From assembly GCA_964586355.1 (NCBI GenBank), contig CAZPGO010000014.1, positions 1 through 9,773 on the forward strand: a stretch of DNA of 9,773 nucleotides, written 5' to 3'. Shown here piece by piece: positions 2,560 to 9,637 of this stretch. Every line of letters starts with the position of its first letter. The first letter of the stretch is position 1. The notes under the pieces are model-generated. The model was not told where the DNA came from, ran no database searches, and saw only the letters and a list, made by a program, of their open reading frames with translations. This DNA is from an uncultured archaeon (GTDB lineage: Archaea > Iainarchaeota > Iainarchaeia > Iainarchaeales > CSSED10-239). The translations under genes were made by a program, and so were the position numbers.

Positions 2560-2754
2560 TTATTTTTTTAATTTTTCAAATTCTAATTTTGTTAATCTTT
2601 TATTTAACAAATCTAACTTAGAATCCATAACTTTACTACTTACTGATTCTCCAATTGGCAATTTTCTAATTCTTTGTTTTTCTAAAGTTATTAAAAATAT
2701 ATTACCTAATAAAAAAACAAAAATTAAAATTAATAATATTAATAATAACACCAT
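2560..2754 (-). CDS. Small membrane-anchored protein (N-terminal TM helix plus charged coiled-coil-like tail), hypothetical
   Basis: 64-aa ORF with an ATG start 4 nt after the stop of the upstream ORF (2761). A GTGA Shine-Dalgarno-like element lies 6-9 nt upstream. The sequence is a hydrophobic MVLLLILLILIFVFLLGNIFLI segment followed by a K/E/L-rich tail. It is short, so the coding status is not certain. Confidence 0.55.
   Translation of the reverse strand: MVLLLILLILIFVFLLGNIFLITLEKQRIRKLPIGESVSSKVMDSKLDLLNKRLTKLEFEKLKK
2563..2569 (+). terminator. T7 run directly after the C/D sRNA; candidate terminator
   Basis: TTTTTTT starts 4 nt after the sRNA terminal stem. It lies inside the last codons of the convergent minus-strand ORF 2560-2754. 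Confidence 0.3.
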
Positions 2755-3521: not shown

Positions 3522-4190
3522 TTACACTCTTTTTATATATTCATCAATCTCTTCAAAAGAGACTGCACAACCATTAAATTTTAGGGCATAAAGTGCTGAT
3601 TTAAGATATTCTTTTTTTAACATATATGCTGGTATTGTTTTTGATTCATAAGCATGAGAAAATAGATCAACAGATCTAATGACACTAACATTTCCGATCT
3701 CTTCTTTAAATTTATCATATTTCTCTGCATTAAAAATAATTTTTTTATTTCTATATTTTCTTTTTAAAACCTCTAGCAACCCTTCAGGAGACTCTACTAA
3801 CATTCTTGTTGTTCTCTCGTCAATTGCTAAACAATCGGCATTAGTTAAACCTAATAAAGCTAAACATTCTGCTTCTCCAAAATCAACAAGATGTAAAGGA
3901 TTATTATTTATTGAAAAAATACTGTTTGATATATTTAATATTCTATTTGTTTTTTCATTAAGCTCTTTTGATCCACCAACAACAGTAAAAACAAATTCGT
4001 CTATGTATTCTTCTATTCTAAGTGAACTTAGTTTAAATTTCATATTGTTTCTTACTCTATCCACACATTCATATTTTACTCCAGTAGTGATGATTAATTC
4101 ACCTATACTTTTTTTTATCTCTGGCATTAATGGTAAAAAACAGGTTTGTGAAAACCCAATTAATATTCCTGAATCTAATACAATTTTCAT
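3522..4190 (-). CDS. PIN-domain protein (COG2405/DUF3368-like signature) with an insertion and a C-terminal extension
   Basis: 222-aa ORF with an ATG start preceded by AAAGGAATAAATA. The N-terminal strand MKIVLDSGILIGF contains the first PIN Asp. It is followed by ELIITTGVKYECV, then DFGEAECLALLGLTNADCLAIDERTTR, which is the GEAE...(D/E)(D/E)..R pattern of this PIN subgroup. The family assignment is by eye only. Confidence 0.6.
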   Translation of the reverse strand: MKIVLDSGILIGFSQTCFLPLMPEIKKSIGELIITTGVKYECVDRVRNNMKFKLSSLRIEEYIDEFVFTVVGGSKELNEKTNRILNISNSIFSINNNPLHLVDFGEAECLALLGLTNADCLAIDERTTRMLVESPEGLLEVLKRKYRNKKIIFNAEKYDKFKEEIGNVSVIRSVDLFSHAYESKTIPAYMLKKEYLKSALYALKFNGCAVSFEEIDEYIKRV

Positions 4191-4203: not shown

Positions 4204-5019
4204 TTATTCTTTTTTTAAAGCTGTGTGTAAATAATTTACTCTTTCTTTAATACTTTTTATTTTTTTATCTTCATCAGATATTTTTGTGGTTCCAACCATT
4301 TCCATAACATTCTCTTTTTGCGCTGATAAAAGATTTGTAGCTTGTGATAAAGACATTCCATAAGCATAAGCACTTGAGGCTAATTTTGTTCTTGCGTTAT
4401 CTACTAGATTATGAATGAAATGGCCTAATGTTCTATCTGTGTTTTGAATATTATTTTGAACTTTTTGTATTGCTTTTCTATACTCACCCATCTTTTTTTC
4501 TCTAAAACAACTACTTGCATAAACTAGATCATTTGTAACAGTACTAGAAAAAGAGTTCCATTTAGGATTATATAATATATGTTTTTTGGACATTAGTTTT
4601 CTAAATGAATAAGTAATAATTGTTAGCTCAATTAGATCTTTATTGTTCTTCATTACTGCTTCTTCTAAAAGCTTTTCATCAAGTCTATGAAGCTTGTCCA
4701 AATTTCTTTTATTAAATTCATTTATTATTTCTGTAATAATATCTGAATAGTCTTCTAAATTTAGATTTAAATTAGTGGCATTATTATTTTTGTTAAAACT
4801 ATTGTTTTGAGTATTGCGAAAACTGTTATTTTGAGTGTTACGAAAACTGTTGTTTTGAGTATTATTTCTATTAAATCTATTTCTATTAGGATTATTTGAT
4901 GTTGATTTATTAGATCTTATAGCTTTGACAATACCAGAATTTTCTAAAAAAGAATTGGGTCCTGATTTGTCTTTTTTTGCATTAACATAGTTTTTTCCTG
5001 ATCTATTATTATTACTCAT
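4204..5019 (-). CDS. Hypothetical protein: basic N/Q-rich low-complexity N-terminus with 3 x NTQNNSFR repeats, and a helical C-terminal domain ending in an HTH-like segment
   Basis: The tracked ORF runs to 5049, but that start is TTG. The ATG at 5019 is preceded by AAAGGAATAAAAAA, the same RBS-like motif found in front of the PIN gene, so I prefer it (271 aa). The stop lies 13 nt upstream of the PIN gene start. The C-terminal ARTKLASSAYAYGMSLSQATNLLS fits the Y..G.SL..A..L pattern of UPF0175-type HTH proteins. That similarity is weak. Confidence 0.7.
   Translation of the reverse strand: MSNNNRSGKNYVNAKKDKSGPNSFLENSGIVKAIRSNKSTSNNPNRNRFNRNNTQNNSFRNTQNNSFRNTQNNSFNKNNNATNLNLNLEDYSDIITEIINEFNKRNLDKLHRLDEKLLEEAVMKNNKDLIELTIITYSFRKLMSKKHILYNPKWNSFSSTVTNDLVYASSCFREKKMGEYRKAIQKVQNNIQNTDRTLGHFIHNLVDNARTKLASSAYAYGMSLSQATNLLSAQKENVMEMVGTTKISDEDKKIKSIKERVNYLHTALKKE
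4795..4866 (-). repeat. Three tandem 24-bp in-frame repeats encoding NTQNNSFR
   Basis: On the plus strand the units are aaaactattgttttgagtattgcg, aaaactgttattttgagtgttacg and aaaactgttgttttgagtattatt, at 4795-4818, 4819-4842 and 4843-4866. They differ by a few substitutions. Confidence 0.9.
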
Positions 5020-5180
5020 TTTTTTATTCCTTTTTTTGTTCTTATACAAAAATATTTATTTAATAGTATTTAAAATACTAACTATCTATTCTATTAATAT
5101 TATAAAACCAAATATATATATATTTGTTTATTATATATTTATATAACTTAAACTTAATAAAAAGAGATGTGAAATAAAAT

Positions 5181-6638: not shown

Positions 6639-9637
6639 CCTTTGATTTTAACTCGGACCCTTAGTATCAGAAAACTGAAATGGTCGTTTTGACACTTCCA
6701 TCTTACATTACTGACCTATCAAACCGGTCTTCTACCGGAGTCCTCGTTCTATATCTCTATAGAAATGGCTGTCTCGTCTTAGGGACTGCTTCGAGCTTAG
6801 ATGCTTTCAGCTCTTATCAGTTAAAGCGTAGCTACCCGACAGTGCCTTGTCAGACAATCGGTACACCAGAGACTTCGACACACCGTTCCTCTCGTACTAA
6901 ATGTATCTTTCCTTCAGACAGCCTGCGCTGCCAATAGATAGGAACCAAACTGACTCGCATCGTTCTTAACCCAGCTAACGTACGGCTTTAATGAGTGAAC
7001 ACCTCCACCCTTGGCTATTTGTGCCCAGCCAGGATGCCGTGAGCCGACAGCGAGGTAGCAAACCGCGGGGTCGATGTGAACTCTTACCCGCGACAACCCA
7101 GTTACCCCCAGGGTAAATTTACTGTCAGACTAGGCCCCCACTAATAGGGACACTAGCGTTCGCTAGACCCAAGTTTCCTTCCTGCGTTTCGTGCTTTGAG
7201 AAACACAGTTAAGCATGCTTTTGGTCTTGTCCTCTACAGCAGATTTCTGACCTGCTTGAGCATACCTTTGGACACCCCTGATATTCTTTCAGGGGTGTAC
7301 CGCCCCAGTCAAACTACCTGATCAAATGTTGTCCGCTTACAAAGAAGCGTTGAGTCATGGTTTTCATACTAGATGGTGTTACATTGTTGTCTATCTAGCC
7401 CCTAGCGAGACTAGCATCAGCGACTCCCATCTACACTCTATAGTATAAAAAACATAACAACATCAGACTGTAGTAAATCTCCATGGGGTCTTATCCTCCC
7501 ATTGGCAGTTCGTGGCGTATTCACCACGTGTGCAAGTTCACTAGGTTTAAATTAGGGACAGCGGAAATCTCGTTACTTCCTTGGTGCAAGCCGACAATTA
7601 ATCGGCAAGGTATTACGCTACCATGAGAGCCTCAGAGTTAGGCCCGCTCTTTACCAGCGCTTGGATCAGTTGAACCTGATATTCACGTACTAGCAGTGAG
7701 CAGAGGTCAGTGACTATACACACCGTTTCCGGCTAGCAGTCACCTGTGTTTTTGCTAAACAGTCGGACTTCCCTAGTTACTAAGACTTACAGTTTACTCA
7801 ACCGTAAGCACCCCTTATACCTAAGATACAGGGCTAATATTGCCGAATTCCCTTAATTTAATTATCCTATTACGCCTTAGCTTACTCAGCTAGAGACACC
7901 TTTCTCGGTTCTTGGTACGAGCAATAAACCACATTATAGTTCTCTTTTCAAGGGCTCTTGGCCTCGATAAAAGATTTCTCCCATTTGTATCTTTAACCTA
8001 TTTCTCATCATTATGATCCTCCATAGGTCTATAATACTTAGATGTGCAGACAAGCACACTCCACCTTGCCAAAAGCGTTAAAAACTATACTTGCGTTACC
8101 ACACGTGATTTATTGGTACAGGAATATGAACCTGTTTCCCTTTCGATGTTTGCCGTATTACGGGTCATCTTAGGATCGACTTACCCTTAGCTAAAGATTA
8201 GTGCTAAGGAACCCTTGCCCCTTCGGCGGAAATGATTCTCACATTTCTTTGATGTTACTATCGCGAGGATCCATATCTTTGGCAGATCCACAGGATATTA
8301 CTACCCTACTTCTGCTCTACCAAAGCACCTATCTATCAGATCACAAATTGCTTGTGCTCTGTGATATCGGTGGTTAGTTTAGCCCCGTTAATTTTCAGCG
8401 CATCTGTCCTAGATTGGTGAGCTATTACGCACTCTTTAAAGGATGGCTGCTTCTGAGCCAACCTCCCAATTGTCTGAGGACAAAAACTACTTTCCAGTTA
8501 ACACTTAACTAACACTTAAGGACCTTAATCACAGTCTGGGTTTTTTCCCTCTCGGAGAAGCAGCTTACCCGCCCCCCCCGACTCCAGCCTTCAACGACAA
8601 TAATACATTCGGAGTTTGACAAGAAAGCCGAAAATTTCTTCCCGATACTTTCTAATCAGTATCTCTACCATATTATTAGTCTCCAGCCAGGCTATCCTAA
8701 GGGATATCTCGATAGGAACCCGCTATCACCAGATTCGATTACTCTCTCAGTACTATTCCCAAGTCACACAATCAGTTAGACTAGAACTGCTTCGGACCTC
8801 CAGCAACCAGTCGGTCGCCTTCATCCTGCTCAGGAATTTATCATCTGGTTTCGGGTCATTTTCTAGTGACTAAAGGCACAGTTAATACCTCTTCCCTGAA
8901 TTAAAAATCTGCGGAAAATCGGTTTCCCTACGACACCATGATGTAACATCACTTCGTCTTGCCACTAAAAAATACTCCCTCGCCCGTGCTTCGTGACGGA
9001 TAGTGTAACCCTGTTCCCATAACACTTGCTTTTGCAGTTACCCACAATCACTCATGTGCTATGATCAAAACTTTCAGGCCACACCCGAACAGTAGCCAAT
9101 TAATTTCAAGTGCTTGAATTCACCCTCCGTTAGGAGAACTTTTCAACTTTCCCTCTCGGTACTCATTCGCTATCGGTCTTGTAGTATATTTAGGATTAGC
9201 AGTAAGTGCCTGCCATACTTCTGACGCGATATCCAACGCGCCATACTCTTGGTACTTAAAAATCTTCTCAAATATCTTATACCTACGGGACTATCACCCT
9301 CTTTGGTTAAGCTTTCCAGAAAAATTCGGTTTTGAATTCAAGAAGTAAATAAGCCAAAACACCCCACATGTCTTTTATATTACTATAAAAGATTCGGTTT
9401 GTCCTTTGCCGTCTTCGGTCGACCCTACTACCGGCATCACTATTGTTTTCTTTTCCTCTAGGTACTAAGATGCTTCAATTCCCTAGGTTCCCTTCCAGAC
9501 TTTAACATCTGGATAATTCGAGCATCTTGGGATCAAAGGCTGCATGCGCCTACCCCAAGCTTATCGCAGCTTGCCACGCTCTTCATCGGTCTACAAGCCA
9601 AGTTATCCATTAATTGGCTCTATATAAAATCAAAGTT
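6639..9637 (-). rRNA. rrl: 23S (LSU) rRNA, archaeal type, apparently complete (about 3.0 kb; ends +/- 15 nt)
   Basis: The reverse complement contains several conserved LSU elements. The 5' domain has GAUGAAGAGCGUGGCAAGCUGCGAUAAGC (9559-9587). The GTPase-centre region has GCAGCCAUCCUUUAAAGAGUGCGUAAUAGCUCAC (about 8417-8450). The PTC has GGGGGUAACUGG (about 7097-7109) and CCUCGCUGUCGGCUC (7041-7055). The A-loop has GGUGUUCAC (about 6995-7003). The sarcin-ricin loop is AGUACGAGAGGAAC (6885-6898), and GCUGAAAGCAUCUAAG lies at 6796-6811. Helix 1 pairs 9625-9635 with 6640-6650. GC content is visibly much higher than in the flanks. Confidence 0.97.

Follow-up and report, generated by a model that had tools for sequence, protein, structure and literature searches.

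The A-loop of the large ribosomal subunit, formed by helix 92 of 23S rRNA, is modified at U2552 and/or G2553 (E. coli numbering) in all organisms examined, according to a review. A review table of mapped 2′-O-methylated nucleotides (Nm) equates Um2552 with Um2669 of P. abyssi and Um2921 of yeast, a modification shared by all domains. Guidance of this methylation by a box C/D small RNA (sRNA) was predicted at the U2552 equivalent in five of seven archaea by Dennis et al. (2015, PMC4644070), and one of the sRNAs described is NeqsR10 of N. equitans (Randau 2012; Dennis et al. 2015, PMC4644070, additional file 1). Haloarchaea are thought to use a homologue of the enzyme RlmE instead, as reported in Haloferax. 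A search of the literature returned no work on box C/D sRNAs of DPANN archaea apart from that on N. equitans, and none for Iainarchaeota. Here, we analysed a 9,773-nucleotide stretch of DNA from an uncultured archaeon (contig CAZPGO010000014.1 of assembly GCA_964586355.1), the whole of which is hereafter called the window. Positions 2494–2559 of its plus strand very likely encode a dual-guide archaeal box C/D sRNA that directs ribose methylation of the U2552 equivalent in the 23S rRNA encoded by the same window, and most likely of 16S C1402 too.

The D′ guide of a box C/D sRNA matches the 23S A-loop

The nine nucleotides TGAACACCT of the D′ guide at 2511–2519 recur at 6996–7004, with the identity ending at both borders. 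These are the sole two copies in the window; 0.05 copies of the 9-mer were expected from dinucleotide shuffles, and two copies were reached in only 1 of 200 of them. The second copy is antisense to the 23S rRNA gene, which occupies 6641–9634 of the minus strand at its full length of 2994 nt (Rfam LSU_rRNA_archaea, 2492.6 bits). Its minus-strand transcript contains rRNA 5′-AGGUGUUCA-3′, the complement of the guide, and one unpaired G separates the paired stretch from the CUGA of box D′. Nine contiguous Watson-Crick pairs are formed at guide positions 2–10 upstream of D′. When the whole 23S rRNA was scanned, this A-loop site was the best for the D′ guide, followed by a site with eight Watson-Crick pairs, one G-U pair and an internal mismatch.

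In this duplex, A2516 at guide position 5 faces the U encoded at 7001 on the minus strand, which makes that U the predicted 2′-O-methylation site under the N+5 rule. In the Rfam alignment, the loop of helix 92 begins with this U (consensus cgGGc-UGUUC-gCCcg), and the first A-loop nucleotide is U2552 in the E. coli-numbered alignment of Dennis et al. (2015, PMC4644070). The helix 92 hairpin of the window, rRNA 5′-GGAGG-UGUUC-ACUCA-3′, lies at 6992–7006 on the minus strand and contains the guide duplex (6996–7004), whose rRNA nucleotides correspond to E. coli 2549–2557. The CCU-side of the guide faces AGG here, with U at guide position 2 opposite rRNA A2549. The first-pass annotation, made from the letters of the window, had proposed that the guide is identical to the strand antisense to the 23S rRNA, pairs over nine contiguous positions and selects U2552 in N+5 register. 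Direct sequence comparison, recomputed pairing and the two alignments agree with it on each of these points. Both ends of the helix 92 stem of the window show G.A oppositions (GGAGG/ACUCA) in place of the C-G and G-C pairs of the archaeal consensus.

The sRNA is 66 nt long and lies in the intergenic gap between rpiA and a small open reading frame (ORF) at 2560–2754. Its arrangement of C, D′, C′ and D boxes is unique in the window, both strands of which were scanned over 9.8 kb, and can be read directly from the plus strand. A terminal stem is formed by UACAC (2494–2498) and GUGUA (2555–2559). The 5′ strand is followed by an unpaired A (2499), box C AUGAUGA (2500–2506) and a 14-nt D′ spacer (2507–2520), which holds the guide UGAACACCU at 2511–2519 with A2516 as its N+5 position. 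Box D′ CUGA (2521–2524) is then separated by an 8-nt D′–C′ loop (2525–2532) from box C′ UGAUGA (2533–2538). The 12-nt D spacer UAGAUGGGCGGG (2539–2550), a putative 16S guide whose N+5 position points to C1402, leads to box D CUGA (2551–2554). The overall size of about 66 nt and the 12-nt D spacer match what is expected of archaeal C/D sRNAs (about 50–70 nt and a spacer length near 12 nt). As in that class, the terminal stem closes the K-turn of boxes C and D, and boxes D′ and C′ supply the second, internal K-turn or K-loop motif. An Rfam search of the region returned no family at its gathering score, the best being sR2 with 28.1 bits (gathering 42; E = 1.3e-4). The near-significant matches below threshold were all to box C/D families, namely sR2, snoPyro_CD and sR3. 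Because the C/D families of Rfam are lineage-specific, this result places the sRNA outside every curated family and says no more than that.

A TATA-like box, TTTATAAA, lies at 2464–2471 on the plus strand, 36 nt 5′ of box C and about 27 nt 5′ of the terminal stem. A T-rich tract with T-runs 3′ of the stem (2560–2577, plus strand) is a candidate terminator. A TTTAWAWA element was observed 30–37 nt 5′ of box C in the window and in 12 relatives, while the surrounding sequence was unconserved. We regard the TATA-like box as a candidate for an independent archaeal promoter of the sRNA, although it is weak evidence by itself in an AT-rich genome.

Both guides are conserved and the D′ guide changes together with the A-loop

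Relatives of the window were reached through homologues of a neighbouring ORF (3522–4190), which gave Iainarchaeota contigs with 23S rRNA 83–90% identical to that of the window. Their order of genes is kept as 23S, a few ORFs, the small ORF, the sRNA and rpiA. An alignment of 13 Iainarchaeota sRNA sequences, window included, was built from them. In this alignment, the D′ guide UGAACACCUG reads the same in 12 of the 13 sequences, as does the D guide AUGGGCGGG. Both exceptions come from one contig, L137, which has a changed D′ guide and an A at position 2 of its D guide. Boxes D′, C′ and D are invariant throughout, and box C is kept except for AGGAUGA in L137. The 5′ ends of the spacers, the terminal stem, the flanks and the D′–C′ loop, which is unconserved and 4–13 nt long among the relatives, drift while the guides stay fixed.

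The terminal stem changes in a compensated manner, with variants such as UACAC/GUGUA, AGACA/UGUCU, AUGGC/GCCAU and GUGGC/GCCAC. All six of its pairs were changed on both sides, and the inner three pairs were 100% paired. The covariation score was reached by none of 500 shuffles, and 80.8% of the cells were paired, compared with 19–45% when the partner strand was slid. Through its invariant guides and covarying stem, the comparison demonstrates the architecture of the RNA and purifying selection on both guides, which is the signature expected of a functional C/D RNA.

Whether the guides of homologous sRNAs track the A-loop sequence had been set beforehand as the test that could refute the proposed pairing. 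Helix 92 is the same as that of the window (GGAGG-UGUUC-ACUCA) in every relative but L137 and L138, and the relatives with an unchanged helix 92 are uninformative for covariation because their target is identical to that of the window. The informative case is the lineage of L137, to which L138 from a second sample also belongs. Its full-length 23S rRNA is 83.9% identical to that of the window and no more distant than that of relatives that keep UGUUC. The A-loop of L137 (5949–5975) reads GGAGG-GGUUA-ACUCA, with G in place of U2552 and A in place of C2556 between unchanged flanks. At the syntenic position, L137 carries an sRNA whose D′ spacer, UAAUUAACCCCUG, holds the guide UUAACCCCU, in which C replaces A at position 5 and U replaces G at position 9. 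On its own A-loop, this guide restores nine Watson-Crick pairs at positions 2–10, with position 5 facing G2552. When the guides were exchanged, neither the guide of the window on the L137 23S rRNA nor the L137 guide on the 23S rRNA of the window gave an A-loop match. The guide and the A-loop of L137 have thus changed together, as the proposed pairing predicts. We consider L137 a natural compensatory-mutation experiment, and strong in-silico evidence that the modification of position 2552 was kept though its base changed.

The same agreement between guide and target is seen in the sequences given by Dennis et al. (2015, PMC4644070). The GAACA-CCC of NeqsR10 pairs with GGG-UGUUC of N. equitans, and the GAACA-ACC of MKAsR17 with GGU-UGUUC of M. 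kandleri. In Sac-sR7 and IHOsR33, GGGCA-GCC pairs with the GGC-UGCCC of S. acidocaldarius and I. hospitalis, respectively.

A metagenome scan for the helix 92 context with a first loop base other than U found 60 contigs, with the loops GGUUU (41 contigs), GGUUA (18, a count that includes the L137 contig itself) and GUUUA (1). Since the GGUUA loop was found in 18 metagenome contigs, it is real and no assembly error. In these variant DPANN A-loops, C2556 is replaced by U or A beside the U2552 to G change, and the rest of the helix 92 context is conserved. The 60 variant-A-loop loci yielded no C/D sRNA of any type, which leaves the GGUUU type without an sRNA partner. If a guide tracks the GGUUU A-loop, the D′ guide would end in ...AAACCCCU-N-CUGA.

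The second guide probably targets 16S C1402

Positions 2–10 of the D guide are complementary to 16S rRNA 5′-CCGCCC(A/G)UC-3′ (E. coli 1399–1407), with C1402 at the N+5 position. Against the universal 16S sequence CCGCCCGUC, the guide forms eight Watson-Crick pairs and a U.G wobble at 1405, and against a DPANN 16S sequence, CCGCCCAUC, it forms nine contiguous Watson-Crick pairs at positions 2–10, in the same geometry as the D′ guide. A 16S 3′ end with CACACCGCCCAUCAAGCC was found in 13 of the DPANN contigs from the helix 92 metagenome scan (at 1560–1871 of L167, for example). These contigs carry 16S–23S operons, with 23S rRNA 69–72% identical to that of the window. The Rfam model SSU_rRNA_archaea confirms their 16S rRNA, in which A1405 occurs with a compensating U1496, versus the near-universal G1405–C1496. 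G1405 is a site of aminoglycoside-resistance methylation in bacteria. As judged from the 16S rRNA of these other organisms, the D guide of the window organism probably targets 16S C1402.

Neither the 23S rRNA nor the tRNA-Met of the window contains an acceptable target for the D guide. Other candidates were considered and rejected, those on 23S rRNA for Iainarchaeota. The best site on 23S rRNA (8046) is mismatched beside the target nucleotide. The 3′ strand of helix 92 fits poorly as ACUCAUU in the window, where the canonical archaeal GCCCAUU would fit. A target in 5S rRNA or in a tRNA (tRNA-Met anticodon loop or acceptor end) was supported neither by the tRNA-Met of the window nor by any locus.

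The proposed target is itself a known one: the review table of mapped Nm sites equates Cm1402 of E. coli with Cm1369 of P. abyssi and Cm1639 of yeast, a site shared by all domains, and the review gives the Cm1402 equivalent as a mapped Nm site in P. abyssi that is snoRNA-guided in Arabidopsis. The core of the D guide, GAUGGGCGG, is also present in MKAsR114, Sac-sR122 and MmasR106. The flanks of the guide match the 16S difference at 1408–1409 (AC versus GC) between M. kandleri and S. acidocaldarius, and 10 Watson-Crick pairs and one G-U pair result. The GAUGGGCG guides were given without an rRNA site label by Dennis et al. (2015, PMC4644070), and Sac-sR122 and MmasR106 without any label. We observed that, with a single U.G wobble, 16S C1402 suits these published guides. 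The GAUGGGCG guide of M. maripaludis is ambiguous in its assignment, since the 3′ strand of 23S helix 92 (C2558) fits it about as well as 16S rRNA, or slightly better.

A-loop guides are widespread in archaea

One genome per GTDB species was scanned with the pattern of a C box, GAACA, 4 nt, a D′ box and a C′ box, which found at least 119 loci. Among the matches listed, to which the statements of this section refer, a D box followed 10–14 nt after C′ in 67 of 76 archaeal loci versus 1 of 43 bacterial ones. The archaeal loci belonged to Micrarchaeota, Altiarchaeota, Iainarchaeota, Undinarchaeota, Woesearchaeota, Nanoarchaeota, bins labelled Methanosarcinales, and others. Because 67 of the 76 archaeal loci are complete, A-loop guides are common in archaea, and especially in DPANN. 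A 23S rRNA was present on the contig of only one of these loci, that of the near-identical relative STD2_171.

The A-loop guides are paired with a few recurrent partner guides by phylum. The partner is GAUGGGCG in Iainarchaeota and Altiarchaeota, GGYURAYAGCGU in Micrarchaeota, and GCGGAAGUAACU in Undinarchaeota, Woesearchaeota and the bins labelled Methanosarcinales. The core GAUGGGCGG was found in at least 23 of the GTDB A-loop sRNAs, at least 18 of them with the guide suffix ACC, mostly from Altiarchaeota. The D′ guide of MmasR106, ACGGAGUAGCUU, resembles GCGGAAGUAACU; a candidate target is 23S ...AAGCUACYCCG..., just upstream of GGGGAUAAC.

Proposed mechanism and alternative explanations

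By analogy with characterised archaeal ribonucleoproteins (RNPs) of this class, the sRNA would assemble with L7Ae, Nop5 and fibrillarin. The D′ guide would then pair with the equivalents of E. coli 2549–2557 in nascent 23S rRNA, and fibrillarin would methylate the ribose opposite guide position 5, which is that of the U2552 equivalent at 7001. For 16S C1402, the D guide would most likely act in the same way.

Several observations count against this mechanism. The D′ spacer is 14 nt long (13–14 nt in the clade) versus the archaeal norm of 12 nt, a length found in 50 of 67 other A-loop sRNAs among the matches listed, and longer spacers lowered activity in vitro. Covariation within Iainarchaeota comes from one lineage, L137 together with L138. 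Genes for fibrillarin, Nop5 and L7Ae were absent from the approximately 20 kb examined of the longer metagenome contig that carries the window DNA. Finally, a stand-alone RlmE homologue, as in Haloferax, could make the guide redundant.

Part of this is taken up by the explanation that the sRNA is mainly a folding chaperone of helix 92 in 50S assembly, with methylation absent or incidental, or that an RlmE/FtsJ-type enzyme methylates the site and the guide is a redundant reserve, much as snR52 exists beside Spb1. A role of archaeal dual guides in rRNA folding has been put forward in the literature, an RlmE homologue has been reported in Haloferax, yeast employs both Spb1 and snR52, and the non-standard 14-nt spacer could reduce catalytic efficiency. 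A chaperone needs complementarity but no fixed N+5 register, whereas position 5 faces 2552 not only in the window but also in four other phyla and in L137, where both partners have changed; the U2552 equivalent is, moreover, a mapped Nm site in P. abyssi. We consider this explanation unlikely, if the most serious of those weighed here.

It is far less probable still that the nine-nucleotide match arose by chance and that a genuine C/D sRNA has some other D′ target, such as a tRNA or an mRNA. About 1.1–1.5% of random guides would match the 2994-nt rRNA perfectly over 9 nt somewhere, and the D guide of the same sRNA is without a target in the window. The chance of a match at one named nucleotide is, however, about 3000 times smaller than anywhere in 23S rRNA, and the nucleotide actually hit is a particular one that is modified universally. 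Across the phylum, the guide stays invariant while its flanks drift, and at least 67 archaeal species share this guide logic. The two compensatory double changes in L137 make a chance match effectively refuted by covariation. Equally hard to credit is the view that the element is not expressed and consists of fortuitous box motifs in AT-rich intergenic DNA. The motifs are indeed short, and the RNA folds with no more favourable energy than its shuffled versions (z = -0.44), but low folding energy is not expected of C/D sRNAs. The architecture occurs just once in 9.8 kb with both strands counted, its boxes and guides are conserved and its stem covaries in 13 sequences at one syntenic position, and the TATA-like box stands at a conserved position upstream. 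A dual-guide box C/D sRNA that would direct methylation of the U2552 equivalent, and probably of C1402, remains the explanation that we favour.

Source organism and genomic neighbourhood

The closest named genome is that of 'Candidatus ainarchaeum sp.' STD2_171 (L117), whose 23S fragment is 98.6% identical to that of the window and whose sRNA differs from that of the window only in the D′–C′ loop. The near-identity of both the 23S rRNA and the sRNA assigns the host to Iainarchaeota (DPANN). The DNA of the window was also present on a 54-kb JGI metagenome contig (L001). Outside the rRNA gene, the window is AT-rich, with 24% G+C. Besides the small ORF (2560–2754), its minus strand carries tRNA-Met (1555–1631) and rpiA (1765–2442, Pfam Rib_5-P_isom_A).

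The 23S rRNA gene of Iainarchaeota is unlinked, with a YchF-type GTPase gene on one side and lineage-specific ORFs on the other, and no 16S rRNA gene was found within 10 kb in the window, on the JGI contig or in the relatives (L124–L139). In the other DPANN lineage, which was recovered by the helix 92 metagenome scan (L141–L190), the 16S–23S operons are linked. Two further ORFs lie on the minus strand between the 23S rRNA gene and the sRNA. The product of ORF 4204–5049 (281 amino acids) has no Pfam match, and the position of the gene is kept among the relatives. The N-terminal part of the protein is Asn-rich and includes three tandem copies of NTQNNSFR (repeats near 4790–4870). ORF 3522–4190 (222 amino acids) gave only a faint signal of DUF3368, a PIN-like 'predicted nucleic acid-binding protein' family. 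Homologues of this ORF number more than 120 in DPANN phyla, and its place between 23S and the sRNA is constant in Iainarchaeota. In four contigs from outside Iainarchaeota that were reached through homologues of this ORF (L131–L134), the synteny was lost and neither 23S rRNA nor the sRNA was found.

Implications for archaeal rRNA methylation

The mechanism proposed here is the textbook one and the site belongs to a known class of targets, with sRNA-guided modification of the U2552 equivalent in archaea already published, so that the accepted picture of archaeal C/D sRNP function is unchanged. What is new is the host phylum, the compensatory evidence, including a lineage with G at the 'universal' U2552, and the likely pairing with a C1402 guide. 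If, as is likely, one RNA holds the guides for both U2552 and C1402, this suggests that rRNA ribose methylation has a minimal core that is conserved. A bolder and more doubtful proposal is that, in genome-reduced DPANN, one sRNA carries guides for the only two ribose methylations common to all three domains (23S Um2552 and 16S Cm1402). The pair found in Iainarchaeota recurs in Altiarchaeota, and the sRNA could, as a minimal core guide, possibly replace enzymes of the RlmE and RsmI types. The same tentative proposal takes in a sub-lineage in which U2552 has become G (GGUUA, GGUUU) with the guide following, which might mean that selection acts on the 2′-O-methyl group rather than on the base.

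Comparison with known guide RNAs and methyltransferases

Among described guides, NeqsR10 of N. equitans is, like the sRNA of the window, a DPANN box C/D RNA, with the D′ guide AGUGAACACCCU-CUGA, a GAACA core and the same N+5 register. Helix 92 of N. equitans (GGGGG-UGUUC-ACCCA) also has the unusual G.A loop-closing pair seen in the window. The two RNAs differ in the D guide, which is AAAAUCCACACA in NeqsR10, in the length of the D′ spacer (12 nt in NeqsR10 versus 14 nt) and at guide position 2, where NeqsR10 has C opposite rRNA G2549 and the sRNA of the window has U opposite rRNA A2549. N. equitans is, in addition, a hyperthermophile with 26 sRNAs. Similarity is confined to the boxes and the guide, and shared ancestry of the two genes is not implied.

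MKAsR17, Sac-sR7 and IHOsR33 likewise place guide position 5 of a C/D sRNA opposite the U2552 equivalent, although with other loop and stem sequences (UGCCC A-loops in Crenarchaeota) and other partner guides; in Sac-sR7, the A-loop guide is at D rather than at D′ as in the sRNA of the window. For the second guide, the counterparts are MmasR106 (M. maripaludis), MKAsR114 and Sac-sR122, whose GAUGGGCG guide has the same core as the D guide of the window but is joined to different partner guides. The core is also shared with the eukaryotic snR70 and U43, which guide 18S Cm1639 and Cm1703. In yeast, snR52 and Spb1 serve the same A-loop nucleotide and modification (25S Um2921), with a eukaryotic snoRNA backed by a protein enzyme. 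RlmE/FtsJ, responsible for bacterial Um2552 and haloarchaeal Um2587, makes the same modification at the same nucleotide as a guide-independent enzyme, whereas in the archaeon of the window this task would fall to an sRNA-guided RNP.

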